NCBI GenBank assembly: GCA_958009085.1
Contig: OY253686.1
Coordinates: 868,001 to 891,867 of the forward strand
Origin: Protoeuglena noctilucae
Lineage: Eukaryota
Direction of reading: 5' to 3'
DNA: 23,867 bases
Shown here: positions 1-20,857 of the stretch, one piece after another
Layout: each line of letters opens with the position of its first letter
How positions within the stretch are numbered: position 1 is the stretch's first letter
Made by a program: the position numbers and the translations under genes
Notes under the pieces: generated by a model
Database searches by the model: none
What the model saw: the letters and a program-made list of their open reading frames with translations, nothing else
What the model was told of the DNA's origin: nothing

Positions 1-20
1 ATCGGGCATCCCGGCGGGCC

Positions 21-2395
21 ATGGGTCGCCGCGATTGGCTGCGGCTTGCAGCGTGGGCGCAGTGGGCGTTTCCGTGGCGCCGCGTCCCGGCCCCGCTGCG
101 GTCGCCGTGCGTCCATCTCCCACTGGATGCATCGCTCGGCGCGTCCCGGACTCGCGAGCTCGCCTCCAGAGCTTGGCGCGCGGCCCCATCGCCCTGCCTA
201 CGCACTCCAGCCGTGCCGGGCCCCCGCGTCGGGCCCCGCCGCCACGCCGGGCAGGAAGCGACGGACGCCGGCGACCTCGAGGATGAGCGCATCGAGATCA
301 CGGAGTCTCTCCTGTCCGCTCTCCGCGAGCGCCACGCGCGCCACGCTGCGCTGCAGCGGCGTCTCTCCGGGGAAGGCGTCGCGGAGATGGACCCAGCGGA
401 GGTGGCGAGGCTGAACAAGGCAAGGGATACTTTGCGTGATGTATGGGCATGCGCTCAAGGGCACCGGCAACGACCTCACCCGTTTTTGCATGACCGTGTC
501 TGTCGCTGCCCCCTTGGCTGCAGGAGCTGGGGTCCCTGGCGGGGGTGGCGGCGCAGTGGGAGGAGCGCGAGAGGCTCCTGGAGGAGATACGGTGAGCGGG
601 AGGGGCAGGTGGGCCCGCAGGACCCACCATGTGACACGGCAGCCGTGTCGTGCCCCATCGCACGCCTCGCTTCAGATGGCTGTGATAGAGTGAGCTGTTA
701 GGTAGGGAAACCTCCGTTACTTGTTCTTCGCTTCTCAGTGGTCTTCGCGAGGCGGCGGATGACCCCGGGGAGGAGGAGGAGGTGCGTGCCCTGTGCCGCG
801 ATGACCTCAGTCGTGCTGAGGGTGCCCGGGAGGCATTGGAGCAGCGCATGGCGTGGAATATGGTGCCGAGGGACGAGGAAGACGAGGGTGAGTCATGGTT
901 GGTCATGGGTTAGATGTAATCTAGGGACACAATGCGGGTGGGAGAGGTGCGCATGTGAGGGTGCATGTTATGCAGGGGCAGTGCGGGTGGCATGCGCATG
1001 TGAGTAAGGCCGCGTGTCGCACAAAGTGTTGGCACCATGCTAGTGTGAAGGTGCGTGTCCATGCCCCACCCGCAGCCGAGGGCCTGGTGTTGGAGGTGAA
1101 GGGCGCCGTGGGTGGCGAGGAGGCGTGCGTGTTTGCGGGGGAGTTGCTGGCCATGTACCGGTCCTTCTGCCACAGCCGCGGGTGGCGCTTCGACGTGATC
1201 AGCCAGCAGTCCTCCGAGTACGGCCACTGCAAGCACGCCGTGGTGGACGTCACGGGGGCGGGGGCGTACCGGTGAGGCATCACAGCTGCATCACAGTCGT
1301 GTGTCTTGCTATGTAACACTGACTTAGATGGTACTGGATCCACTCCGCTACTAGGGTAAGCACGGCAGCATAGCACGCTCTTGCCTCGGCCGTGCGTGCG
1401 GTGGGGCAAAGGCACCCTCGGGTGCATGGATGCTCACCTGACAGCCCATCACGTCAGATCTGACGCTCAGGGCATTGAAGCACGAAGCGGGCATCCACCG
1501 CGTACAGCGCGTGCCCGACACCATCAAGGCCGACAAGGTGCAGACGAGCGCGGCGGCCGTGCTGGTGCTGCCACGAATGGGGGAGGCGCAGGTGCAGCTG
1601 GACATGAGGGACGTGGCGGTGGAGGTCATGCGGTGAGATCACATGAGCAGCTGGGCATGACAGGTCCTGAGTAGCCAGATTTGGATGGTGATTCGGATGA
1701 CAGGCCACCTGTTGGCAAGTTGGCCAAACATGCGCCATCGCACTGCTACATATTGTTAGTGCTACACACCCTGCCGCCCCTCGTCAATCCACTTTGCTCC
1801 CTCCTCTCCCCCTGTCCCCCCAGTTCCTCTGGCGCTGGCGGCCAGCACGTCAACACCACCGAGTCAGCCGTCCGCGTGACCCACCTGCCCACGGGCGTGT
1901 CGGTGCGGGTGCAGGACGGCCGCAGCCAGCACCAGAACAGGGAGAGGGCGCTGCAGATTCTTAGGGCGAAGCTACTCGACGCGGAGAAGGCCAGGGCAAC
2001 GGTGAGGCACTGTCATGGCACTTTTGTGCATTCTCATACACTCTCATTCGCTGTTGTGCACTCGCATGCACCATGGCACTCGCATGCACTGGCTTGCACT
2101 CGCATGCACCCTAACACCCTTCTCCTTCCCCTCCCCGCAGGAGGCTCGCGGCCAGGAGGCCTCTCAGCAGCTGGGCACGGGCGACCGCTCTGCCAAGATC
2201 CGAACCTATAACTTCAAGGACGGCAGGGTGACGGACCACCGCGTGGGCCTGGTGCTGTACAAGCTGTCCGAGGTGCTGAAAGGGGAGGCCCTGGGGGAGC
2301 TGGTGGATGCGATGGGGCGGGAGGAGCGGAGGAGGAGGGCAGAGGAACTGGTGGGGGCGATGGGGGGGCGCGCGAGGGGGGGGGAGGGGGGATAA
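21..2395 (+). CDS. prfA: Class I peptide chain release factor 1, organellar (probably mitochondrial mtRF1a-type), ~468 aa; exons 21-419, 524-591, 739-887, 1076-1271, 1471-1632, 1824-2001, 2141-2395
   Basis: The spliced product has RF1 motifs: [36 protein letters not shown] (PxT), [25 protein letters not shown] (GGQ), [28 protein letters not shown] and RVTDHR. All intron phases match. Intron 1 has a GC donor (AAG|GCAAGG at 420). The Arg-rich N-terminal extension resembles a targeting peptide. The start ATG is tentative because it lies at the window edge. Confidence 0.93.
2058..2109 (+). repeat. Three imperfect tandem copies of GCACTCGCATGCAC in RF1 intron 6
   Basis: The 14-mer is seen at 2058-2071, 2076-2089 and 2096-2109. 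Confidence 0.85.
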
Positions 2396-2649
2396 GTGGT
2401 GACGGGAGGACTAGGGAGTGTTTTTGTGAAGCATCGTTGGTTCAATGATGGCACGCGAAACATGTATCGAGAAAGCACGAAGCACTGTTTGCACCCCAGC
2501 TCTCCATACCAGAGCCTCTCCCCACACCCACCACGGCTCTCTCCACCACCCACCCGTTCCCCCTATCCCTTCCCACCTAGTCCACCTCTCCACCCGGTCC
2601 TTCCATCCCCCCATCCCAATATTCACCTCTCCCCCTCTATCGCCGCATC

Positions 2650-4173
2650 TCACGCCCTAGGCACGGCTGCCCGGAAGGACGCCACCATGGCCCTGAGCCT
2701 CTTCTCGTTCCTGGCCCACTGCTTGTCGTGAGCCGTGACCTTGAGCATCAGCGCCAGCTCGCCGTTCGTGGTGATCTGAGGGGGGAGAATGGGACACGAG
2801 AGATGGGCGGATAGTAAGGCGGGCCTGGAGTGGCACCAGCGATGGGGTGGACAGGGTCAGGTGGCAGCGGAGCGACGCAAGGGCTGAGCGATCGCGACCA
2901 TAGTCGCTGCCATCCCCACCTGCGCCAGGATGTGGGGCCCCGTGAGCGCGTCGGGTGCGTTGAGCTCGTAGGTGTAGTACGTGGACGCGTCGTCGTCATA
3001 CTGCGAGTAAAGAGAGACAGTCAGTAAGTGACTCACGCAAGGCTCACGTGGACACATGGTCACATAACAGAGGCAGACAGCTGTACCATTGATGGGTAAT
3101 GACCCATCACCCATCTTACCTTGACGGACTCCTTTCCCACCACGTCCCCCGGCTCCAGGTAGTTCCCCGTCAGGAACTGCCCAATGGACTCGAGCACCCC
3201 CTGGGGCGTCCCCACCTCCTCGATGGTGGCGCGTGCCTTGGGGGTGAGGCGCTCCAGGGGGGAGACGATCACCTCGGCGCGGCCCTCACGAGCATTGCTG
3301 AAGATCACCTGGGGAGACGGGAGAGATGGGAGATCGGTGGAGTGTGTGTGGAGGTGTGGGCATGGTGGTGGGTGCAGCGAGCGTGGCAGGCTGGGTTGTC
3401 AGCAAGTGTGGTGGGTGCGGCATCAAGGCGTGTGAGTGGCGTACAAGGCAGAGCAAGAACAGAGCCCTTCCAGCATATGCCACTGCCCCATCCATTCCAG
3501 CACATCCCCCATCTAGCCCACCCTTGCCTCAGTCCATGGCTCCGCGCACCGTGGCTGGCAGTAGTTCCCCGACTGGATGTTGGCCACACGGTCCTGCGTT
3601 TCATAAACCAACATATATGTTGCATCTCGACTGCCTCGTGCTTGGTGCAAGCATCTGAAATCAAGTGGGTATTTTAGAGCCGGCTTGCCTCAGACCAGGA
3701 GGCGGGAAGGATGAAGGTGTAGGGGCGGTCGGGCTTGACGGTGCCGGCGCGGATGGCGGGGGTGGCGCGGGGGCCGGGGACGTAGCGCACGAAGTCGTCG
3801 ACGCCGGCGGGGGGCAGGTAGTTGCCCACCTCCTTCCCCGCAGCTGCGGACGCCGCGCCTGCCCCTGGCGACCCGGCAACGACGGCCGCCAGGGCCAGGA
3901 GGGCGCGGCGGGAGACGTCGACGGGGGCGGCATCAGCAGACGGGCGGACGCTGCGGGGGGCGAGGTGGGCAAGTGCAATGAACTTGAATTCAAGAAGACG
4001 GCATGCAGCCAATGGGGAAGGGACAGAATAGATGCCATGCCACAAGGCGCGACGCCAAGGACGCGCCTGGCCCTGCAGGCGACGCCTGGTGTCGAAGAGG
4101 AGACGGATGCAGCCACGCCTTGGGCCGGGCGCGTTGCCCGGGGCGCGACGGGGATGCGGCACGACGTCGCCAT
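2650..4173 (-). CDS. PPD6: PsbP domain-containing protein 6 (thylakoid lumen), ~276 aa; exons 4173-4067, 3950-3689, 3593-3528, 3308-3120, 3000-2920, 2775-2650
   Basis: The spliced product reads EVGNYLP...TPAIRAG...PYTFILPASWSE|DRVANIQSGNYCQPRCAEPWTE|VIF...SPLERLT...ATIEEVGTP...FLTGN...YYTYEL...ALTGPHILA...KQW, matching plant PPD6 as I recall it. It has a transit peptide plus a Tat signal (SRRALLALAA...AxA). Three of five introns need GC donors (4066, 3688, 3527). Confidence 0.9.
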
Positions 4174-4940
4174 CTGCACGGGGAGCGCAGGGGGCCGTCG
4201 CTGCGCACTGCCACAAACCGCGATGCGATACTGCATCTGTGGCGCGGAGCGAGAGATGGGGGCGACTAAGCGGGGCGCGCGGCGCGGGCGATGGGACTGC
4301 TCTTGTGTGGCAGGTGCGCAGGGGCCCTCAGCAACGCCAGCTGGCCAGCCAAGCAAGTTTTGCCAGCGCGGCGAATCGAGTTTGGAGACGAGATATCTGC
4401 ACGCGCTGCATCGGTGCGCCCGAGGAGGCATCGCGGGCGATCCGGACGCAGCCCTTCGCGCGCTCTCGCCCACACTTTGAGCACGCTACGCAGGCGCGGG
4501 ACACGCGTTAAGGGCGCAGATAGACAGTGGCAACTTCAGTTTCCCTAAATCCACGGCCTGAACGTCGGCAACGCATCCATCGCGCCCTGTGCTCGCCTGG
4601 TTCTACGTGTGACGTCTCCCGAGCTCGATTCGTTCCCAACACGCGAGCCTTTGGTATCTCGTGCTTGTTTGATGTACCGCCGTTGATATCCAGCGGGTAC
4701 AGCAGGTTGCGAGCGAGCCAATTTATGGAGTCAGGGTAAGACTGATATCACATGTGTCATGAACCATTCAAGCCGCACCATGCTTTGCAACATCAGCCTG
4801 TTCGTCACCTGTCGTCCCCTCTGTGCTCCGATCTGCTTCCCGCGGGGTGTGATTCCGTCCTGGATCGTGCGCCCTGTGTATCTGCACTGGGCGCGCTTTT
4901 GCAACCTCCACAGGCTTGCGATCTTTCGGTTTTCCACGCC
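4174..4940. promoter_or_regulatory. Divergent (head-to-head) intergenic region between PPD6 and the P450 gene
   Basis: Inferred from the opposite orientation of the flanking start codons. The region is CpG-rich. No specific element was identified. Confidence 0.45.
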
Positions 4941-7900
4941 ATGCTGTCGCTTCAATCTCTTCAAGCCGCGGACGCTCCCGGCGGTGCCCGCGGAGCGCGT
5001 CACGGCACCGGGCGCGCCCGCCTGGTCGTGCCGGGGAAAGGGGGCCCGTCGCGCTTCGCTGGGCGTCCCGTGTCCCTCCTGACCCGCCGAAGCGGAAGCT
5101 CTGGATCGGTCGCTACCACCTTGACGGGCGACAGCCCAGGCGCGTGTCCCCGCTCCGCGCGCGTCCTCAACTACCCAGCTACCCCAAGGCCACCCCTGCC
5201 ACGCATGCCCGCTCTCTCCCGCCGCCCCAGGCAGCGAGGCTCCCCTCCCCGGCAGCCGTCCCGGCCAGCGCTGGGACGGCCAGTGGCGCCCCCCCGTGGT
5301 GGAGCCCCGCGGGTGGTGGGCAAATGTCCCCCTGCTGCGCCGCTGGGTGGGCGTGCTTCCCCAGCTGTCCATCGACCGGATGAACACCGTGGCTGGCCCC
5401 GCGTGGCTGGAGGCGCTGCGATCCGACGCCGTGTGGTACTGGATCTTCAACCGCGACATCTACCACCTGCGTGACCCAGACGACATGGCTGAGGTGGCGA
5501 GGAGGGTGGAGGACTTCGCGCCCCCGGGGGCGAATAACAAAACGCTCAAGATATTCCTTGGGGACTCCCTCGTGATTGCATTTGGGGTGTGGGAAAGTGA
5601 CAGTCTCAGCGTCATTTCTACCCATGTGCCGCTTGCAACAGCCACGCACCCCTCACCCTCACTCTCACTGTCACTCCCATCCCTCACCCCCACTCCCACC
5701 TCCTCCCCCGCTGCTCGCAGATTTCCCTGGATGGCCCCCGCCACAAGGCCGAGCGCGAGGCCCTCAGCCCCCCCTTCCAGGGGTCATACGTGCAGAGGAT
5801 GGTCCCCACCGTGGCCGCTTGCGCCGAGGACCTGGCACGCGTGCTGGCCATCAAGCAGGGGCAGCCGCAGGAAGTGACCGAGACGCTGCGGTGAGTGAGT
5901 GGAAGGAGCAGGGGCAGTGGAGCAGGGAGCGACCGAGACGCTGCGGTGAGACGAGCAGGGGCAGCATGCTGACGGTGGCATGCTGCTCACCCCACTCCTG
6001 CCCTGCACCCCACCCCACCCCAAGCACTCCCCTCCCCATTTCCTTAATCCGCGCACGCCTCACCCTCACCCTACCCCCACTCCCCATCTCTCTTCATTCC
6101 CCCCAGGCGTGCTGCCCTGGATGTGATCGGCCGCGTCGGATTCGGCACCGACTTCCGCGCCCTGTGGTCCCAGCTGGGGGGTAGCGAGGAGGTTGTCAGT
6201 GCGGGGCAGTCGGATGACGTGGGTGACTTGATGGAGCACTGGCAGGACTTTGCCGACTCCGCGGAGAAGATCATGTTCATGCCGCCGGTGAGTTGCTGAT
6301 TACTACTGGCTACTACTTAGACTACAGCACTACGTGAGGGCCATGGTCATGGTCGTGTTCGCCTTCCACCACTCACATCTCTCACTCACCCCCACTCTCT
6401 CACATCTCACTCCCCACTCCCTCTCAGTCCCTCGCGTGGTTCTCCCCCTCCTTCTACCGCTACCGCCGCGGGGTGGACCGCATCACGCGTGCGGCCAGGG
6501 GCATGATGGAGAGGAGGAGGCGGGCAATGGAGACGGGCAGCAATGCGCAGGGTGAGGAAGAAGGGGAGTGGAATGCATGATGGGCAGGCATGGGAGCGCA
6601 GTGCGGCACTCACTACTCACCCTCACTCTCACCCTCACCCTTGCTGCCACCCTCACCCTCACCTCCACCCCCACTCTCACTCACTACCACCCCCACCCTC
6701 ACCTTCACCCTCACCCTCACTGCCACCCCCCACCTCCCCCCCAGGCGCCACCCGCGACGTCCTCTCCCACCTCCTCGCCAACCAGTCCCGCTACGGCATG
6801 TCGGAGCAGCAGATCTTGGATGAGATGAAGCTGCTGCTGTTTGCGGGGGTCGACACCACCGCGGCCACCGTCAGCGCCGCCATCCACGGAATGGCGGGGG
6901 TGAGTAAGGGGGGTGGCATGGCTTGACAGGGAGTGTGCAGATGATGTGAGTGTGTTATCCGCCCATCTCACCAACCAGTCCTATCACTTCCACGCCACTT
7001 CTCCCGCACACACACAGCGCCCCGACTGGCAGCGTGCGTGCAAGGAGGAGATCGACGCTGTGATGGGTGACAGGCCACTGTCGGAGATGACGTATGAAGA
7101 CCTGCAGGTGAGGGAGATGATCGTGTGGCGATGCATGGGGAGATAGATGCAGTGGAGATGGCCATGCTAGAGAGTGCGGCAGGCAGAGACCCATCAACGC
7201 GCATGACGCACCACAGCCTGTCACCATTACTACTACCACTCACCACCACCACCACCACCACCACCACCACCACCATCACCCACCTCCTCCCCCCCCCCCC
7301 CAGTCCCTGCGCCGCGTGCAGTGCGTGTGGAGGGAGTCCCTGCGCATGTGGCCCGCCAGCCTCGGCACGGCACGCACAGCCAGGCACGACACGCAGCTGA
7401 GGGGATACGACGTGCAGCAGGTGAGGGTTGAGGTGGATGGCAGATGAGGGTGGGTGGCAAGACCATGGTTCCTCCCTCCCTCACTCACATTCACTCACTC
7501 ACTCCCTCACCCCTCTCCCACCCCCACCCCTACCCATAGGGCACCACCATGGTCCTCAACTTCTGGGCCTTGCACCGCCACCCCTCGCTGTGGCCCCGTG
7601 CGGACGAATTCCTCCCCGAGCGGTGGCTCCCTGAGTATGCACCCACGCTGGGCCCCTCACGTTCTGACGCCCTCATGCCATTCAACGTGGGGCCGCACGC
7701 ATGCATCGGGGCCACCCTCGCCAACGCGGAGGTGAGAGGGAGAGAGAGGTGGGGGGAGATGGCTCAGGTGCTGTTGCTGACACCCAGCTAGTAGACTATG
7801 CACGGATGGAGAGGCGGCTCAGGTGCTGTCACATTCCATATGAATCATTGAATGCTGTCACAATGAGATAAACTTCCTTCTGCCAACACACCACCATGAG

Positions 7901-11181: not shown

Positions 11182-14077
11182 ATGGGGAGCTCGAGTGCGG
11201 GCGACCCTGTCCCCGACCTCGCTAGCCGAGCGGAGGCCCTGCTATGTGCCCACGTGGATGCCGGGGCCAATGCGCTGATCGAGGCCATTCGGGAGATGGC
11301 GGACCGGTGCGCTTCCGAGGCGCGCGGGCCACGCAACAACATGAACCTTCAAGCACGAAATGCGCGAGCCTCTGCCGACGTGCAGGGCCCAGCGGACCGT
11401 GAGGGATCAGTTACGGGAGTTCGCGAACATCTCGCGGCGCGATTCCTCCGCCGGTGCTCCCCCGGAACCGACTGGCCCCGCTGCCTCCCGCGCCCTTCCC
11501 CCGGCCCCGCTCAGCGATCGCAGCGGCGCCGATTCGGCCGACGAGTCCCATAGCACCGCTGACGCGTCCTCAACCGCCCGCGATCCCATGGGAACCCAGG
11601 ATCCCTCGCATCCCGCGGCAGTGGCGTCGCTGCTGCGTGTTTTGGGTCCCGATGTCGAGTGGGGCGCACTGCCCGCCGCGCTGGCCTGGGACCCCAATGC
11701 ATGGGCACCCCGACTGGTCCAGCAGTCCGAGTACTCCCGGCTGAGGCGAGCTAGTGGTGCCGACGGCCGACCTTCCCCTCATCGCCAGCACCACTCCCGC
11801 ACCTTCTCACCCCGCCCCTCTCCCCCTCCCCCCAGCACCCGCGCCCGCCTCTGTGACCGCCTGGAGCGTCGCGTCGCAACCTTAGAAACCCACCTCGCCA
11901 GGGCCAAGGCGAACCTCAAGAGGAGCAACGCCCTCGCGCCCACCGACCTGCCGCCCCACATCGCAGCCGCGCTCGCCCCAACCGACCCGGCCACGCCACC
12001 GCACTCCACCGCGCACCCCAGCCCCACCCCTTCCGCCGCCCCCCGCCCCGACCCCCACCACGAGGCGTGCGGTGTGCGGCTGTGGGTGTCGGCGCCTGCT
12101 GGGCGCGGGTGGGTGGAGCAGCGCAGCCCCGCCTGCGCCGCCGCGGCTGTGGCTGGGGCGTGGAATGCCGTCCGCCCGCCTTCGTCGCCCCTCTTTCCGG
12201 GGGGGCTGCCCCGCATACAGGTGAGATGGTGTCCATCATGGCTGTCACAGTCACACGTGCTATCAAAAGATCAGCAAGCAGACAACACAACTGCTCCCCG
12301 TTCCCCCCCATTTGCAGCAAGACGACGTTCTCGATCTGTACCGCGAATACTGGGCGGACGAAGTCAGGGCGGCAGCCAGGGGCATCCTGTCGATACTGCA
12401 GGTGTGAGGACACGCAACACGCACATGCCCATGGCTACCATCCCATGCTTACTCCACTCCACTGCAGCAACCCACACCCCTTCCCTCTGTCCCCGCAGCC
12501 CTTCTCCCCCGCGCCCGACAGCCCCTCTCCCTCGCAGCCCCCCAGCTCCTCGCACCCCGCCACCACCACCACCCCGCCCCTGCCGCCCCCCTCGGTGCTT
12601 GCCGGCCTGGAGTCTGCGCTGCGTGAAAGAGGCGTCATTCGCGCGGGGCACAAGCCGGGGAAACGGGAGGTGGCGGCAGCACTGGCGGTGTATGCAGAAG
12701 TGCCCGAGGCAGAGTGGGGCGTGGAGGATGATCAGAGGGCAGCAACAGGGGACGCAGATGGGGAAGGGGAGCAGGCGTCGCAAAGGGGAGGGCGGGGGAG
12801 GAGGGGTCGGGGAAGGGGGCGGGGAGGGGTGCGGAGGCGGGTGAAGGGGGGGACGTTTGACGTGCCAGTCGCCATCTTTGAGGGGCCGGGAAGAGCAGGG
12901 GATGGGGCAGGTGATGCAGAGGGAGTTGCGGACGGGGATGGGGGGACAGCAGAGGCTTCGGCATGCGGGAGTGAGAGGGGTGGCGAGAGTGACGCCTCTG
13001 CCGCTCCCCGCCGTGACCCGTCAGACTATGGGGCATCACCCAGGCCCCGCGCGAGGCGGTCCGCCAGCACGGGTCTCCTGGGCACCCACGCGGGTGCAGT
13101 CACGGGATTGTCGCTGCCGGCCATCCGTGGGGCGCGCAGGCCCCCTCTGCCGGCCGTGGTGGGCATAGGCTTGGCACCGCCTCGGCCCCCATGCGACCCC
13201 CCGGACACCGACGCTGCCCTCTCCCCACCCCACGTGCTATCCACCGCGACAGCTGTGGAGCTGGACGCCCCTCCACCCGACAGCCCCCCGCATCCCCGCG
13301 ATGCATTGGGGGAGGAGCGCGTGCGTGCCGCCATGCGCGCCCTGCTGCGGGGCGGGGGTGCGCATCGTGGCGAGGCGGTGGCGCGGGTGCGGGCGTGGGC
13401 GTCGCGGCAGGGCGCCCTGGGCAAGCTCAGCGGCCCTCGCCCCAGCACGGCCCCCGTGGGCACGGACCGCGTGATGTGGGCGCTGCAACGTCTGGCGTCC
13501 CGCCACCAGGTGCAGCTGTCCGTGTGGCGGCTGATGGGTGCGGGGCGTGGGAGGTACGAGGTGCCACTGGCGGCGGAGGATGGGGAAGACATGGTGGCGG
13601 AGCAGTGGGGCAAGGTGAGGGGGAGAGAGTGGGGGGGGTACCAGGGGAGGGATAGTGGGGCAGAGTGAGGGTAAGAATGAGGGCAGCAACGGGGGGCAGA
13701 ATGCGGGGGTGTTACGACAAATGGAAGGCCGTGGGAAGGGCAGTTGGCATGAGCTGCGAGCGTCGCCCAGCCACCCTCCCTCCTTCGCCCCTCGCCCGCA
13801 GCTGCTTTCGTGGCTGTCTGCCCCTCGCGCGGCGCTCATCTACCACTTAGAAAACCACTTCTCGCTGATATACGCGGCGAGGGAGTGGCGCAGCGACGCC
13901 GGCTACGGTGGGGCACGCACAGTGCGTCAGGTGCTGGTGGCGCGGCCGGGGCAGCGGCCCTGCTACTGGGTGGACTTCGCCTGGCTCAGGGACACGTGCC
14001 TGGCGTGGAAGGGATACAACGTCGTCGCCGTCGCGTGCCCGGGGCCGGCAGGGGGGCCCCAGGCAGGCACCGGCTGA
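11182..14077 (+). CDS. Uncharacterised protein, ~780 aa, with a split BIVM-like / papain(C39)-like fold; exons 11182-11306, 11386-11745, 11836-12220, 12318-12401, 12499-13614, 13802-14077
   Basis: The exon chain is phase-consistent. Conserved-looking blocks VEQRSPACAAAAVAGAWNA, RPSTAPVGT and LIYHLENHFSLIYAAREW...VLVARPGQRP..WVDF are separated by low-complexity linkers. Intron 11746-11835 (GC donor, 90 nt, in frame) is tentative. Confidence 0.75.
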
Positions 14078-14141
14078 CAACACGCACAGACCAGTCGCAG
14101 ACCAACGTTCAATGCACGCCCCCTGTCTAGTTGTGCAGTGA

Positions 14142-15004
14142 TCATCGCGGCCGCCTCGTTTGCGTGGGTGGCCGGTTCGCCAGCTGCTGCGCCCTTTCCA
14201 GCTGCGGGGTGAAGGGAGGACGTACCGTCATTGCCAGGCATGCACCAAAGCGCGCATCGCTCGCTCGCGCCCCGCCCTCGGCCCCCCACCTGCCCCGCGA
14301 TGACCTCTCTCCGCGCGGCCCACAGCTGCTCCCGCCGCCTCCGCTGCTGCATCAGCGTCCCGTCCTCACGCACCGCCGCCTCCATGGCCGCCCGCGCCTT
14401 GGCCGCCTGGCCCGGCCGGGGAAGCAAATCCACCCCGGGGAGGCCCCGCCCCGCGCCCGCGTCCACGTGGACGGGCGACACGGGCGCAAGGGCGAAGCGC
14501 TCCGGGTGCCGCTCGTCCGGCATCAAGCCCACCCGCCGCAGCAGCTCCCGCACCGTGGGGGTGGGCTCGGCGCCCTGGGCGAGCCAGTACTTGGCCCGCG
14601 TGAAGTTCAAACTCAAGTGCAGATTCCCGTCGTGCCTGCGGGGCGGAGCGGAGCGCGGATGGCCGCGTGAGGCATCGTGGGCGAAGGCACGGCTGCAGCA
14701 GGACGGGGCGAGTTTTCCGCGCATCTCGGCGCCCCACCTGGGCTGCGGCCAGAAGTTCCCGATCATCTCGACATGCTTGCCATCCCGATTGCCCCCCGAC
14801 CGCGCCACGTGGATGCGGAAATACTCGATGTTCTGCGTGCCGCAGACGGCCACCGCTGACGGTGCGGCAGACGCCCGCGCGGCGCTACTAGTTCGCTCGC
14901 AAAGGGCGCTACAAGGTCCCCGAAACACGTCAGGTCCCCGACTCTCTGCAGGCCCTCACCGCTTTCCCGAAGCGAGCCAGGCGGATTTTCAGCGGCCGCT
15001 TCAT
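14142..15004 (-). CDS. RPS16: Nucleus-encoded organellar (probably mitochondrial) ribosomal protein bS16 with a C-terminal extension, ~181 aa; exons 15004-14960, 14832-14738, 14635-14290, 14201-14142
   Basis: The product reads MKRPLKIRLARFGKA|NIEYFRIHVARSGGNRDGKHVEMIGNFWPQP|RHDGNLHLSLNFTRAKYWLAQGAEPTPTVRELL, matching the S16 pattern (KIRLxRxG...RI.V...RDG..IE.lG.y.P...KYWL..GAqPt.TV..LL). All introns are GT-AG. Confidence 0.92.
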
Positions 15005-15588: not shown

Positions 15589-16843
15589 ATGCAGCAGCGC
15601 GCAGGATGGCGGGGATCCCCGCCCCTGCTCGCCCCGGCGTTGACAGTTAGGCGGGTCTGTTTGCTCGCGGCATCTGCGGGCCCGCGCGTGCCGAGTACCG
15701 GCTGGATCCATGCCCGCAGTTTGCGTTCCGAGGCAAGGCCTGCGATGCCGCCCCGCCAGCGGGTGCGCTGGCACCGAGGCGGTGGCACAGCGCGGCGCCC
15801 CATTCCACGGATCTCCCGGCGCCCCGTCGCACCCCGGGGCACTGCGATGCTTTCCATTTGTGTTCCAGCAGATACGCGTCTCACCCTGTCGTCCCGGATG
15901 CCGTAGAAGGTGCGGGGCGGGGGCATCCAGGTACCCAGCGCTCCATGCAGCCCGGACAGCCACAGAAGTTACTTGCTCTTCCCCCCACGCAGCTCATGGC
16001 AGTGAAAGAGTCGAGGTTTCTTTCCTTCGACGCAACAGCCCGTCGCCCCCCATCCCCTGGGGAGCGACCGCAGTGGTGCGCGGTGCGTGGCCAGCCGTGG
16101 GCTGCGTGTCCCCTGCCCTCTCTGCCCTGCCGGGGATGGAGGGGCTGCAGAGTCGGCGGCGGGGTGTTTCTGGCGCGCGCTGGCACCCCTGGCCGGCGGG
16201 CACAGTGGGATGTGCGGCCATGGGGGGCGCGGGGTCCCTGTGGGTTGGGCGGGGTGCAGCGGGGGGGCCTAACTCAGAGAATGTAGGTGCGGGCGGTGCA
16301 GGAGCGGGGTCGGGTGGCGGTGGCAGAGAGCACCGCTCCGGTGGACCCGTGCCTCAGGTGACGCCCCATGGCATCACAATGCATGATCCGACTCTGCTCT
16401 CCACCCCACTCCTCACCGTCTCTGTCGTCCCGCAGTGCACCCCGCAGTCTCACTCTCTCACTCTCACTCTGTCTCTCCTCTCCCCCCCCCAGCTGGGCGT
16501 GGTTCACCCCGTGGTCCCCGAGCGCAGTGACCGCGCCCAGTACCACACCGTCATGGTGGCCATCTGGGCCAACGTGGCCATTGCTGCTGCCAAGGCCGTC
16601 GCCTACCTCGCCACGGGGTCGTCTGCCATGCTCGCCGAGTTCATCCACTCCTGCGTGGATGTACTCAACCAGGCAAGGGACACGCAGATTTGTATCACTC
16701 TCCCACTCACTCACTCACTCACTCACTCACTCGTCGCCCCCACTCACTCACTCACTCACTCGTCGCCCCCACTCACTCCCATCCCAGTACCTCCTCCGCC
16801 TGGGCGTCCTGTCACTCTCTTACTTTTACTCCCACTCAATCCA

Positions 16844-16876
<33 letters not shown>

Positions 16877-16882
16877 CACTCC

Positions 16883-16915
<33 letters not shown>

Positions 16916-19111
16916 CCACTCCCACTCTCTCACTCTCACTCACTCCATCTCATTCACTCCCACTCTCAGTACCTCCTCCGCCTGGGCGTCCTGGCCGCCC
17001 GCCGCTCCGCCACCGCCGACCACCCGTACGGCTACTCCAAGGACCTCTTCGTGTGGAGCCTCATCGCGGGGGTGGGGATCTTCTGCTTCGGGGGGGGGGT
17101 ATCTTTGGGTAAGGAATGAGTGACAGTGACAGTGACGTGACTGCCATGACACACACCGCACTTGACTCGACACCCCCGGTGGCTGCCCAGTCGTTCACTG
17201 CCCCGTCGCTCACCCTTCCCCTTCCCTCACCATTCCACCCATTCCCCATCTCCTCCCCAGTCCACGGCATCAACAGCCTCCTCACCCCCGGGCATTTGGA
17301 GAACCTCGGCGCGGGTGTGGCCGTGATGCTCGTGTCACTCGCAGTGGAGGGGTACTCCTTCAAAGTGGCACTCGACACGGTGCGGGCGGACGCCAAGCAG
17401 GCCGGCATGTCGCTGCGTGAGTAAGGGTGGGGGTGGAGGGGGTGGGGGGTGGCAGTGCAGCACAGCTGACCACGTGCACTGCTGGCGTGCCTGGTTGGTA
17501 GTACTACTAACTTGACGTGCGTGTGAGTTGTTCCATAGCATGTAACTGACCCGCACCCTTTTTCTTCTATCACCAGTGGACTACATCCAGCGCGGCCGCG
17601 ACCCCACGACCACAGCAGTGCTGGTGGAGGATGCGGGGTCGGTGATCGGGGTGACGGTGGCCGGCCTGTGCATGTGGCTGACGCACTTCACCCAGGCGGC
17701 CGTCTTCGATGCCGCGGGGTCCATCTTTGTGGGGTGCCTGCTCGCGGGGTCCGCGGCGTTCCTCATCCAGGCGAGAGATGGGCAGTGCCCTGTGTCTGCG
17801 CCACTGTGACTGTATACTACTCCCAGCGCTTATGACCACCCGTCACGCCCACAGCACCAGCATCAGCACCGCGCGTGCCGGGTCAGCCAAAGCACCCCAT
17901 ATGAGTGCTCCACCCATGTCTTGCCCCCTCCAGACCAACCGCAAGCTGCTGATCGGCCGCGCCATGGGGCAGGAGGAGCGCGCGCAGGTGCTGGACCTGC
18001 TTCGGTGCGACCCGGTGGTGGCGGCCGTGTACGACACCAAGAGCGAAGAACTGGGGCCGGGGGTGTACCGATTCAAGGCGGAGATCGAGGTGAGGGATGA
18101 GTGGTGGTGATGCGAGTGATGAAGATGGAGGTGAGTTGGCGATGGGGGTAACACGAGGCATGCTTGCAACCGATGCAGCTCTCATGTCATCACACCTCAT
18201 CTCCCCCTCCCAATCCTCCTTCCACCCCTCTCAGTTCTCTGGTGACCAGATCGTGCGCCGCCACCTCGACCGCACCGGCCGTGCTGCCACCCTCCGCGCC
18301 ATCCGCGACTGCGCCTGCGACGACCGGGCACTGGAGAGGGCGCTGAGGGAGTTCGGGAAAGACGTCATCAGCTCCAGGCGAGGGGCAGGGGGCATGGCAT
18401 GGCATGACATGGCAGGGGTGGAGAGCGATGCTTACTGCCCACCATACAGCCGCGTCACAGACCCACCTCACTCTCTCCACCCCCCCAGTGGCGCTGAGAT
18501 CGACCGCATCGAGCAGGAGATCAAGGCGAGGGGACGAGCTGGCACCTTTCCAGCCGCTGCCCATCTGCCAACAAACACGGATGCTGTCAGCTGGAGATGC
18601 GTGGGTGTGGGTGTTACCACTTGCACTGATCAATGAACATATACACACACATGCCCCTTCTCTCCACCCCCCCAGCGTGCCGTCAAGGGCATCCGCCACG
18701 TGGACATCGAGACGGACCGAGGGCGGTGGTTCCGCGCCCAGGAGCAGTGGCCGTGGGACGAGGAGGCGCCAGGGGATCACAGGCCGGAGTTCGTGAGGCC
18801 CAGCGACGCACCGGACACCTACGAGGCCATCGCGCAGTCCATGTGCAGCATACCCACGGTGGGTGAACAAGGGGGGGCGGGAGTCGGGAGGGTGATGAGG
18901 CACACGGGGGGTTTGGTGCAGTGCATAGCTGTAAGAGAGTGTGGTGAGACGGGTGATGCGTTGCAACACAGCCCCGTCTGCCTCCCCACCGCAGGGCCCT
19001 CATCAGGGGGACGGTGCGGGGGGGGCACGGGACCAGGGGAGCTCTGCCAGCAGTGGGGCGGGGGGGCTGCCCGGGGATGGCATGGGGTCGGCCGGCAGGA
19101 CCAAGGCATAG
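15589..19111 (+). CDS. Cation diffusion facilitator, MTP7/ZnT9 (SLC30A9)-like metal transporter, ~610 aa; exons 15589-15732, 15869-15930, 16039-16357 (these three tentative), 16493-16672, 16970-17108, 17261-17416, 17577-17770, 17934-18089, 18235-18377, 18489-18525, 18676-18858, 18995-19111
   Basis: Motifs present: SSAMLAEFIHSCVDVLNQ (TM2 HxxxD), HPYGYSKDLFVWSLIAGVGIFCFGGG, RGRDPTTTAVLVED, FDAAGSIFVGCLL, NRKLLIGRAM, DTKSEELGPGVYRFKAEIEF and GAEIDRIEQEIK...GIRHVDIE. These match MTP7/ZnT9 as I recall them. There are four clear GC donors (16673, 17771, 18378, 18526) and one tentative (15733). Confidence 0.9.
16695..16969 (+). repeat. (CACT)n and (CTCACT)n microsatellites filling an intron of the CDF gene
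   Basis: cactcactcact runs at ~16704-16780 (including a duplicated tcgtcgcccccactcact unit) and ctcact hexamer runs at ~16845-16960. Confidence 0.85.
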
Positions 19112-19254: not shown

Positions 19255-20857
19255 ATGTCCGCGTTGCCGCTGAGCCTCGGCGCAGGCTTGCGCGCCCCTG
19301 CCAAATGCGCTGCCGGAAGGCTCGCCCCGGCGATGCCACGGGCGCAGGCGCAGCGCGCGACGGTGGCGCGGGCAGCCGCTTCCAGGCCTGAACCGGCGTC
19401 GAACGTCCCGCGATTCAACCCCGATACCGACGCCGTGGACGTTCCCGCAACTCCCGCGCCGAGCAAGTTCCGGTCAGAAATGCACGCGCGTGCCTCGCTA
19501 CGCGTCCTAATTGCGTTTTATCGCAGGCCAGAGCAGCTCCGGTGTCGTTTGTGATGCAGGAACATGGTGGCGCTCGTCGCCGGGGCCACGGGGCGCACGG
19601 GAGCTGAGATAGTAAAGCGGTTGGTGAAGGAGGGCGTGCAGGTCAAGGTGAGCTTTGAGCAGGTCGCGGAACGCTTTTTACATACGCGTAGATTGTAGAG
19701 GAGCACCAGCAGTTGGTCGCGGAGGTCCCGCGAGGCGCGCACCGTGCCCCCTGACCTCGTGGCTGCGCACGCACCGTGCCGCACGGCCCCGGCGCGCCGC
19801 GCGGAGCCTCCGTTGCGCCCCTCGCATGCAGGCACTCGTTCGCGATGAAGCAAAGGCGCGAATCATGCTGCCCATGGACAGCGGCTTAATCCAGGTCATC
19901 GTGGTGAGCAAATGCAGGGAGGGGAGCCCTGCGGTTGCGTCAAAGTGAATGTGGCGTGGCCAGCTGCACCAGCGCCTCGCATGGTGACGTGCACCGCAAT
20001 CAGACCTCTCGCAGGGCGACGTGTACCAATACGAGACGCTGCCCCCGGCCATGGCGGGCGTCAACACGGTGTTCTGCGCCACGGGGGCCAGCACAGTCAG
20101 CGACCCCCTGGGGCCCTACAAGGTCGACTACGAGGGGACTCGGTGAGTGGGGAGGGGCCATGACGCTTTGCCATGATCTGCGGCTGCCCCGCACACTCGT
20201 CACGCACGCCTCCCTCATGCCCCATGGCCCACTGCCCACCCTCCAATCCGTCGCTCACCCCCCAAAGTCGCATGCCCATCCGTGCCCCTCCCCCTCTTTC
20301 AGGAACCTGGTGGCAGCGGCGCGCCAGGCCCAGGTGCGCCGCTTCGTGCTGGTCACCTCCATCGGTGCCGACGAGCTCCTCAACCCCCTCAACCTCTTCT
20401 GGGGCGTGCTGTTCTGGAAGAAGCGGGCGGAGGAGGACCTGCAGAGGTCGGGGCTGGCGTACACGGTCGTGCGGCCGGGGGGGCTCAAGAGCGAGCTGAG
20501 GGAGGGGGAGACGCTGGGGCCGGTGGTCATGGCCAAGGCTGGGACGTACGGACTGGGGCCGGGGGCGAGGAAGCCGGAGGGACCCATCCTGCGCAGCCGG
20601 GTGCGGAGGAGCGGAGCAGGCTGGCCATGCATGTCTGTGTGTACATGCATGAACATGTACACATATATGCATGCGTGTGAATGGAATGGCATGGGCTATG
20701 CAACGCGGCTGTCCCTCTGGGCCCTCAGGTGGCGGACGTGGCGGTGGAGGCGAGCGTGGAGGAGCTGGCTGCCAACACGGTGGTGGAGATCCTCACGGAG
20801 CCCAATGCCCGGGAGATGCCGACGCCGGAGATGTTCCGGTCGCTGACCAGCAAGTGA
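19255..20857 (+). CDS. Plastid-targeted NAD(P)-binding Rossmann-fold protein (atypical SDR, TIC62-like), ~310 aa; exons 19255-19472, 19560-19647, 19832-19903, 20015-20142, 20303-20600, 20729-20857
   Basis: An Ala/Arg-rich transit peptide is followed by LVAGATGRTG, ALVRD, GPYKVDYEGTRNLVAAA, FVLVTSIG, LNLFWGVLFWKKRAEEDLQRSGLAYTVVRPGGL and ILRSRVADVAV...NTVVEI. It lacks the C-terminal FNR-binding repeats of vascular-plant TIC62. Confidence 0.9.

Follow-up and report, generated by a model that had tools for sequence, protein, structure and literature searches.

[quoted passage not shown]

A release factor (RF) with an intact GGQ motif and an aberrant stop-codon recognition loop raises the question of which codons it reads. 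Such a factor is encoded near the start of the window, by which we mean the whole stretch of 23,867 nucleotides analysed here (Protoeuglena noctilucae assembly GCA_958009085.1, contig OY253686.1, positions 868,001 to 891,867 of the forward strand). The original prediction of an RF1 with an atypical loop at 1490-1560 and an intact GGQ describes the sequence correctly, with slightly shifted loop borders (Table 1). The gene is the nuclear, intron-split mtRF1a gene of P. noctilucae, a pedinophyte green alga of the order Marsupiomonadales. Both the protein and its altered loop are already in print (Barcyte, Zihala and Elias, PLoS Genet 2025; PMC12574857). A stretch of 40 residues over the loop matches the P. 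noctilucae mtRF1a in row 24 of the S7 Table of that work exactly, and the remainder from exon 4 to the stop is the same as the published entry when the two are compared by eye. The text of the same paper links the mutated loop to UUA and UUG (UUR) as mitochondrial stops across the Marsupiomonadales. The published entry is without the N-terminal region, and the RNA-supported exons 1 to 3 (21-887) are added here. The new elements are an RNA-supported model of the complete gene, the environmental relatives P0155 and P0098, both of which have this loop type, and the caution that the replacement of His193 by Gln alone is no marker of a changed genetic code.

The gene is composed of seven exons, and its product is an RF1-type release factor of 468 amino acids. 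All six splice joints are present in RNA contigs from four of four runs; the RNA evidence consists of contigs only, and the four runs represent at most three samples from one study. The contigs on the gene all fall in the likeness band of at least 99%, with no differing letters listed. Contigs cover exon 1 (1-417) and join it to exon 2. The joint across the first intron is given as 417 to 522, with three letters that fit on either side, and is read here as a GC-AG intron cut at 419|524, which preserves the frame. Exon 1 has no Pfam match. Its reading frame is open upstream of the first ATG in the window, back to window base 3, and contigs of runs X8 and X9 extend beyond the window start, so that the true start codon may lie upstream of the window. 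Among the first 85 residues of the N-terminal extension there are 14 Arg, 4 Asp, 2 Glu and no Lys. An extension so rich in Arg and poor in acidic residues would be compatible with a mitochondrial presequence, the position of the start codon being uncertain. Assignment to the class-I RF1 type is borne out by the order of the domains (PCRF, then RF-1), by the GGQ motif and by the PxT motif, which reads PDT. The RF-1 match of the exon 7 piece alone (22.7 bits) is under the 35-bit cut-off. Elsewhere in the window, at about 2650-4330, the minus strand bears a gene that looks PsbP-like by eye; three ORF pieces there are without a Pfam family, and no claim is made for it.

Table 1. Features of the P. 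noctilucae mtRF1a gene (window coordinates; residue numbers of Thermus thermophilus RF1)
Feature	Position	Strand	Remarks
Gene	21-2395	+	seven exons
Exon 1	21..419	+	first in-window ATG, Arg-rich N-terminal extension, start of RF domain 1
Intron 1	420..523	+	104-base skip in 4/4 RNA runs
Exon 2	524..591	+	GT..AG joint 591|739, 4/4 runs
Exon 3	739..887	+	GT..AG joint 887|1076, 4/4 runs
Exon 4	1076..1271	+	PCRF domain, Pfam E 2.1e-17; joint 1271|1471, 4/4 runs
Helix alpha-5 tip GAVGGEEA	1102-1125	+	in exon 4; Gly116 and Glu119 kept
Exon 5	1471..1632	+	PCRF end and codon-recognition loop; Pfam PCRF E 4.4e-09; joint 1632|1824, 4/4 runs
Stop-codon recognition loop	1496..1561	+	within exon 5
Codon of Gln181	1505-1507	+	alignment to Thermus RF1
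PxT motif (PDT)	1514-1522	+	
Codon of Thr186	1520-1522	+	alignment to Thermus RF1
Codon of Ile187	1523-1525	+	alignment to Thermus RF1
Codon of Asp190	1532-1534	+	alignment to Thermus RF1
Codon of Lys191	1535-1537	+	alignment to Thermus RF1
Codon of Gln193	1541-1543	+	alignment to Thermus RF1
Codon of Thr194	1544-1546	+	alignment to Thermus RF1
Exon 6	1824..2001	+	RF-1 domain, Pfam E 3e-25; joint 2001|2141, 4/4 runs
GGQ motif	1837-1845	+	in exon 6
Exon 7	2141..2395	+	RF-1 domain end, Pfam E 1e-4; Gly/Arg-rich tail
TAA stop	2393-2395	+	in exon 7

The loop residues are numbered according to the ungapped alignment with Thermus thermophilus RF1 (4v4r_AY), in which residues 2-53 of exon 5 correspond to Thermus residues 171-222 and residues 4-64 of exon 4 to Thermus residues 108-168. 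Exon 4 aligns without gaps to both the Thermus and the E. coli RF1 chains. With bacterial RF1 (T. thermophilus 4v63, E. coli 5j30), the protein has in common the domain order, the GGQ and PxT motifs, and residues Gly116, Glu119, Gln181, Arg182 and Thr194; Pro184, Thr186 and Ser195 are kept as well. Unlike bacterial RF1, it carries the substitutions E187I, G190D, R191K and H193Q (position 192 is Val), an N-terminal extension of about 100 residues, and nuclear introns. As a result, the canonical TExxGR(I/V)HTS after the PxT motif is absent. Identity is 44-46% to three RF1s of 353-359 amino acids that are without the N-terminal extension and that, by our reading, are probably bacterial-type. The passages of PMC3974865 on codon reading assign roles to Thr186, His193, Gln181, Thr194, Gly116 and Glu119. 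According to these passages, bases 1 and 3 of the stop codon are read by Gly116, Glu119 and Thr186 and by Gln181 and Thr194, respectively, and His193 stacks on the purine in the second position. In E. coli RF1, the variant His197Ala shows weakened binding, and its release is slowed 5-fold. Glu187, Gly190 and Arg191 are not among the codon contacts given there, and thus the effect of changing them would be indirect.

The original prediction grouped the four substitutions together as one cluster. All four are present, but they are not equally unusual. A HMMER search with exon 5 against 1.84 billion representatives gave 1511 matches with E<=0.001, the best 150 of which were listed. The HRVxRVP anchor is found in 147 of the 149 other listed matches, and among these anchored sequences Glu187 is present in 145, Gly190 in 145, Arg191 in 146 and His193 in 136, with Gln193 in the other 11. 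In the search with P0155, the 8000 candidates sharing most words with the query were scored and the best 120 taken, nearly all of them of 352-360 amino acids; one of these has a source name, which is plain "peptide chain release factor 1". The 119 matches listed contain Glu187 (118), Gly190 (119), Arg191 (118), and either His193 (103) or Gln193 (16). Among the matches listed, Ile187 is thus found in none of the 266 other RF1 sequences compared (147 and 119), whereas Gln193 occurs in 27 of 266 otherwise canonical RF1s, a share that is probably inflated, since both comparison sets are ranked by likeness to queries that bear Gln193. Gln193 is also present in three dinoflagellate mtRF1a proteins (S7 Table, PMC12574857). 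Judged by these comparisons, H193Q by itself is not diagnostic of a changed code, and the unusual part of the cluster is formed by E187I, G190D and R191K, which are rare.

Among the 150 listed exon 5 matches, the loop type recurs only in P0005, which is the window's own 53-residue ORF in a cluster of one member, and in the N-terminally truncated P0098. A word-index search with exon 5 against longer proteins considered 55 candidates and gave four matches, and in each of the four the loop is canonical. The metagenome scan with P0155 yielded no new loop variants among the best 80 of 129 relatives. At 34-55% identity to P0155, 79 of these 80 are taken to be ordinary bacterial RF1s. One metagenome sequence (L022) is 95% identical to residues 1-106 of P0155 and ends ahead of the loop.

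The relatives that share the loop are of Marsupiomonadales type. The mtRF1a loops of Akinorimonas (PKTIGGVDKIQTS) and Oistococcus (PRTIGGIDKIQTS), both from the S7 Table of PMC12574857, are of the same type as that of P. noctilucae, and the three have the loop T-I-x-x-(x)-D-K-(V/I)-Q-T-S in common. The two Resultomonadaceae proteins differ in carrying Q181A and a loop that is one residue longer, and P. noctilucae mtRF1a is without both. The environmental proteins P0155 (PATIKADKIQTS; 63.7% identity to the window protein over 322 aligned positions) and P0098 (PTTIRENKIQTS) belong to the same type. The pattern of Ile187, a residue other than Gly at position 190 (D/N), Lys191 and Gln193 is therefore present in all five sequences, namely the window protein, P0155, P0098, Akinorimonas and Oistococcus. 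The loop is normal in the mtRF1a of the standard-code relatives Pedinomonas minor (PDTETQGRIHTS) and Chlorochytridion tuberculatum (PDTETQGRTHTS), and also in the pRF1 of P. noctilucae itself (S7 Table, PMC12574857). P. minor and C. tuberculatum are Pedinomonadales, described in the text of that paper as sister lineages in which UUR encodes Leu.

In the published P. noctilucae mitogenome (S10 Table, PMC12574857), the counts are 12 for UAA, 4 for UAG, 1 for UGA, 7 for UUA, 2 for UUG and 112 for UCA. According to section 11 of the same work, UUA and UUG are confined in Marsupiomonadales mitogenomes to places at which a stop is expected, and none of these mitogenomes has a tRNA gene for UUR. The idea of an RF1 adapted to a reassigned stop set with UUA and UUG is thus supported by correlation. 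The outcome named as speaking against it, organellar genes that end only in UAA or UAG and substitutions that are common in standard-code relatives, differs from what is found: UUR ends are present, and the Pedinomonadales loops are normal. UCA, which had also been suggested as a reassigned stop, can be dismissed, since a codon counted 112 times in the mitogenome is a sense codon.

Comparison with other systems separates a parallel case from superficially similar ones. The green algae Pycnococcus provasolii / Pseudoscourfieldia marina also use UUA and UUG as stops (Zihala and Elias 2019; PMC6821328, Table S5). The Pycnococcus mtRF1a loop (PGHLAKAKLHTS) is partly parallel to that of P. noctilucae: residue 187 is aliphatic (Leu versus Ile), residue 190 is not Gly (Ala versus Asp), and residue 191 is Lys in both. 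In contrast, Pycnococcus has lost the PxT motif (PGH) and has kept His193, whereas P. noctilucae has kept PDT and has Gln193. Pycnococcus and the pedinophytes are unrelated lineages, and the loop changes are thus independent. The mtRF1a of the Scenedesminia (Sphaeropleales) is similar in being a sole mitochondrial RF1 that is mutated in the codon-binding region alongside a changed stop set, with UCA and UCG as stops and UAG as a sense codon (PMC6821328). Its hallmarks are replacement of Arg182, replacement of Gln181 in the lineages in which UAG is sense, and Thr186Asn together with Ser206. P. noctilucae retains Arg182, Gln181 and Thr186 and has UCA as a sense codon, and a mechanism of the Scenedesmus type is rejected. 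Vertebrate mtRF1 (PDB 8oin/8oir) is likewise a mitochondrial factor derived from RF1 that has kept the GGQ motif, and it is assigned to the non-standard stops AGA and AGG in the text of PMC9810596. It is, however, an extra paralogue with insertions, namely two more residues across the alpha-5 region and three across the loop. Such insertions are absent from P. noctilucae mtRF1a, which is ungapped relative to bacterial RF1 and apparently the only mitochondrial RF1.

We consider it fairly probable that mtRF1a with the remodelled loop releases peptides at both UAR and UUR codons in P. noctilucae mitochondria. The remodelled stretch after the PxT motif, where the second base has lost His193 as its stacking partner, would loosen the reading of this base from A to A or U. 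A single factor would then act on codons with U in the first, A or U in the second, and A or G in the third position, and bases 1 and 3 would be read as by an ordinary RF1. As a guess only, the amide of Gln193, which can be a hydrogen bond donor or acceptor, might contact the uracil. The link between loop and UUR stops is a correlation over two independent lineages, and our literature search found no peptide-release assay. Two observations may weigh against dual UAR and UUR reading by this loop, namely that H193Q is unspecific and that Pycnococcus, also with UUR stops, retains His193. Furthermore, the mitogenome of Marsupiomonas sp. NIES-1824 is reported in the text of PMC12574857 to make no use of UUR, which counts against it as well. 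A more far-reaching version, which we regard as speculative and rather unlikely, is that an aliphatic residue 187, the loss of Gly190 and R191K form a convergent, near-minimal recipe that would make the RF1 pocket for the second base accessible to uracil, and that pedinophytes (I/D/K) and Pycnococcus (L/A/K) arrived at it independently. The amide of Gln193 in pedinophytes would pair with A or U, at the cost of weaker UAA reading and reliance on the import of a plastid factor. The published text speaks only of "the same region" being mutated in both lineages; the parallel at residue level is our reading, drawn here from the published sequences.

Several other explanations have to be weighed. 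It appears unlikely that the loop has nothing to do with termination at UUR. In such a scenario, UUA and UUG would be unassigned codons without a tRNA, ribosomes stalled there would be freed by a codon-independent ICT1/ArfB-type factor with GGQ, and the loop would have drifted under relaxed or other constraints. This would fit with the lack of a UUR tRNA gene reported for the Marsupiomonadales mitogenomes, and with the passages of PMC3974865 in which Glu187, Gly190 and Arg191 are not given as codon contacts. ICT1 had also at one time been proposed to act codon-independently at the non-standard stops of mammalian mitochondria (text of PMC4169044), but later work attributed the non-standard stops of vertebrates to an RF1 paralogue dedicated to them (text of PMC9810596). 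The I187, non-Gly190, K191 and Q193 pattern is constant in five Marsupiomonadales-type sequences that differ elsewhere, which speaks for selection and not for drift, and a partly parallel change is present in the unrelated Pycnococcus. The extra paralogue that the original prediction had offered as a second option, a specialised rescue factor, is very improbable, as is a decaying gene copy beside a normal mtRF1a, and we found no point in support of either. A decaying copy is hard to reconcile with six spliced joints and a frame open over 468 codons. Rescue factors of the ICT1/ArfB type have a GGQ domain without PCRF, whereas the P. noctilucae protein has kept the codon-reading domain together with the GGQ and PxT motifs. 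In the text layer of S11 Fig of PMC12574857, P. noctilucae mtRF1a stands under "Mitochondrial RF1", beside the Oistococcus and Akinorimonas proteins, and the tree text layers name mitochondrial RF1, pRF1 and pRF2 once each for this species. No mtRF2a is given for it in that survey, which found no codon-reading class-I release factor other than mtRF1a for P. noctilucae mitochondria.

A division of labour, in which UUA and UUG are the main or sole codons read by the altered mtRF1a and UAA (and UAG) in mitochondria are left to an imported plastid factor (pRF2, perhaps pRF1), seems quite unlikely. The authors of PMC12574857 raise it in their text to explain the retention of pRF2 in a pedinophyte without UGA in either organelle, and suggest that the mutated loop may read UAA less well and that the import of pRF2 may be required. 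Replacement of His193 could indeed cost affinity for UAA, as the weaker and slower E. coli His197Ala variant indicates. However, UAA and UAG are the majority of the mitogenome stops (16 versus 9 UUR), and otherwise canonical RF1s with Gln193 exist, so that this residue is probably compatible with UAR reading.

Reassignments from sense to stop are rare, and this one would require a bacterial-type release factor to accept a pyrimidine as the second base of a stop codon. P. noctilucae mtRF1a is a natural variant in which every contact for the first and third base is kept and only the stretch that faces the second base is changed, which would make it well suited to release assays and structural work.

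The atypical loop reported in the original prediction lies on a single exon of a split gene. Sequence reading and scripted junction tests yielded a plus-strand model of seven exons and 468 residues. The open frame reaches back to window base 3, and RNA contigs of two runs (X8 and X9) extend beyond the first base of the window, so that the ATG at 21 is merely the first in-window candidate start. With a GC content of 0.62-0.74 per kb, the window reads as eukaryotic nuclear DNA, and the four neighbouring ORF pieces with Pfam matches all resemble exons of intron-split nuclear genes. At about 16700-17100 (plus strand), flanked by cation-efflux exon pieces, two frames encode extended dipeptide runs (His-Ser, Leu-Thr and similar pairs), which points to a simple hexamer-type repeat that is probably intronic. 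Another split gene, at about 2650-4330 (minus strand), lies tail to tail with the release factor gene; its pieces have a PsbP-like look by eye, but no Pfam family was found in three ORF pieces from there.

Features of the release factor gene and Pfam-matching pieces in the window
Feature	Position	Strand	Basis
Exon 1	21-419	+	no Pfam match on the exon alone
Exon 2	524-591	+	gene model
Exon 3	739-887	+	gene model
Exon 4	1076-1271	+	Pfam PCRF, E 2.1e-17
Exon 5	1471-1632	+	Pfam PCRF, E 4.4e-09
Loop	1496-1561	+	within exon 5
Exon 6	1824-2001	+	Pfam RF-1, E 3e-25
GGQ	1837-1845	+	within exon 6
Exon 7	2141-2395	+	alone 22.7 bits in Pfam, under cut-off
Stop codon	2393-2395	+	end of exon 7
p450 piece	6507-6923	+	Pfam E 4e-05, just at cut-off
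Ribosomal_S16 piece	13966-14955	-	Pfam E 6.2e-12
Cation_efflux piece	15644-17116	+	Pfam E 9.1e-13
NAD_binding_10 piece	19908-20843	+	Pfam E 8.6e-16

The RF1-type factor is expressed and intact. Each of four metatranscriptome runs contains 35-50% of the sampled words of the window. When contigs (not reads) of these four RNA runs, representing at most three samples of one study, were compared with window positions 1-2600, all six splice joints were seen in all four runs. All aligned contigs fell in the band of at least 99% likeness, with no differing letters listed. Five of the joints have GT..AG borders exactly as modelled. The first was printed as 417 to 522 in all four runs, with three letters that fit on either side; the in-frame placement, which joins 419 to 524, makes GC-AG, not GT-AG, the best reading of intron 1 (420-523). 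One 218-base X9 contig is unspliced over 1263-1480 (intron 4), where other X9 contigs are spliced; this reflects either retention of the intron or carry-over of DNA into the library. One X8 contig has a 255-letter loose end before 1191 that matches nothing in window 1-2600 and could be a chimera or an alternative upstream piece.

The finding is already published for this very gene. Two papers from one group deal with altered release factors and the mitochondrial genetic codes of green algae (PMC12574857, PMC6821328), and the S7 Table of Barcyte, Zihala and Elias 2025 (PMC12574857) contains a P. noctilucae 'mtRF1a' whose sequence was derived from a genome scaffold without annotation and is flagged as missing the N-terminal region. 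Compared by eye, this protein equals our model from mid-exon 4 to the stop, and 40 residues spanning the loop match exactly. Our additions are modest: the N-terminal exons with RNA support, the GC-AG first intron, two more environmental proteins of the loop type, a residue-level parallel with Pycnococcus and a caution on His193Gln. According to PMC12574857, the species belongs to the pedinophyte order Marsupiomonadales, lives in the sea and is chiefly known as the green endosymbiont of Noctiluca; the marine habitat is consistent with the presence of window DNA in marine metagenome runs. Window DNA is also present in runs that carry the label of one coded organism. Mitochondrial orthology is taken from the tree text of that paper, in which P. 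noctilucae has a single mtRF1a, a single pRF1 and a single pRF2; this lends no support to the suggested rescue paralogue, and it is very improbable that the gene is a surplus paralogue or a copy in decay. The P. noctilucae pRF1 in S7 Table has a normal loop, PATETQGRVHTS, and the paper reports that mtRF2a was not found in any pedinophyte with nuclear data.

Exon 4 residues 4-64 align ungapped with Thermus thermophilus RF1 108-168 and E. coli RF1 112-172, as do exon 5 residues 2-53 with Thermus RF1 171-222. Relative to Thermus RF1, Gly116, Glu119, Gln181, Arg182, Pro184, Thr186, Thr194 and Ser195 are unchanged; the substitutions are E187I, G190D, R191K, I192V and H193Q, and the GGQ motif is present. 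As described in the text of PMC3974865, Gly116, Glu119 and Thr186 read the first stop codon base, the second base is hydrogen-bonded to Thr186 and stacks on His193, and Gln181 and Thr194 read the third. On these assignments, the factor keeps its contacts to the first and third bases, and within the decoding site it departs from RF1 only where it faces the second base.

Loop stretches of the factor and its relatives
Protein	Loop	Source
Window factor	Ile187, Asp190, Lys191, Gln193	gene model
Akinorimonas japonica	PKTIGGVDKIQTS	S7 Table, PMC12574857
Oistococcus okinawensis	PRTIGGIDKIQTS	S7 Table, PMC12574857
P0155, environmental (351 aa)	PATIKADKIQTS	database search
P0098, environmental (198 aa, truncated)	PTTIRENKIQTS	database search
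Pedinomonas minor (UUR = Leu)	PDTETQGRIHTS	S7 Table, PMC12574857
Chlorochytridion tuberculatum	PDTETQGRTHTS	S7 Table, PMC12574857
Pycnococcus provasolii (UUR stops)	PGHLAKAKLHTS	Table S5, PMC6821328

Ile187, Asp/Asn190, Lys191 and Gln193 are common to all five Marsupiomonadales-type sequences (the first five proteins of the table); Pedinomonas and Chlorochytridion have normal loops. The Akinorimonas and Oistococcus proteins additionally carry Q181A (PMC12574857), whereas the window factor keeps Gln181. P0155 shares 63.7% identity with the window protein across 322 aligned positions, and a metagenome scan with it found no further loop variants among the best 80 of 129 relatives. It has a single open frame across the sites of introns 3-6 and 28 extra in-frame residues exactly at the intron 2 site, which suggests that a related alga has fewer introns and that the gene caller read through a short one that is in frame. 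Pycnococcus shares an aliphatic residue 187, a non-Gly 190 and Lys191, but has lost PxT and retained His193 (Table S5, PMC6821328). The Scenedesmus-type changes (loss of Arg182, loss of Gln181, Thr186Asn with Ser206; PMC6821328) are absent from the window factor, and vertebrate mtRF1 has insertions relative to it, judging by the chain ranges of the alignment.

The changes are not equally rare. Among the matches listed, 147 of the 149 hits to exon 5 bore the HRVxRVP anchor (E187 145, G190 145, R191 146, H193 136, Q193 11), as did all 119 hits to P0155 (E187 118, G190 119, R191 118, H193 103, Q193 16). None of these 266 RF1s has Ile187. The original prediction stressed the His-to-Gln exchange; it is present, but Gln193 (TExxGRIQTS) also occurs in otherwise canonical RF1s (11/147 and 16/119 among the matches listed), a share likely inflated by ranking on likeness to Gln193-carrying queries. 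Carriers include P0049, P0072, P0104, P0109, P0121, P0132, P0133, P0143, P0154 and others. Those inspected, from the exon 5 list, include full-length proteins (e.g. 359 aa) and appear bacterial-type, judged by their length and the absence of an N-terminal extension; the 16 from the P0155 list were counted only. Three dinoflagellate mtRF1a also carry Gln193 (S7 Table, PMC12574857). By itself, His193Gln is not diagnostic.

According to section 11 of PMC12574857, Marsupiomonadales mitogenomes have UUA and UUG only at CDS 3' ends, where a stop is expected, and tRNA genes cognate to UUR are lacking; in Pedinomonadales, both codons are freely used for Leu and mtRF1a loops are normal. The authors connect the mutated mtRF1a loop with this stop role of UUA and UUG in the order, a link that is correlative. 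The P. noctilucae counts (UAA 12, UAG 4, UGA 1, UUA 7, UUG 2, UCA 112; S10 Table, PMC12574857) support UUA and UUG as extra stops, in line with the proposed reassignment. UCA, also proposed as a stop, is a sense codon.

It is unlikely that UUR codons are unassigned and served by codon-independent rescue, with the loop change incidental: the conserved loop pattern in Marsupiomonadales-type sequences and the Pycnococcus parallel both oppose it. The text of PMC12574857 raises the possibility that the factor is dedicated mainly or only to UUR and that a plastid factor imported into the mitochondrion reads UAR, which appears quite unlikely to us. Searches of one literature library turned up no release assay for a factor of this kind. 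In P. noctilucae mitochondria, UUA/UUG stops stand beside UAA/UAG (PMC12574857), and we infer that the remodelled stretch probably makes the factor tolerate U in addition to A at codon position 2, so that it would read U-A/U-A/G.
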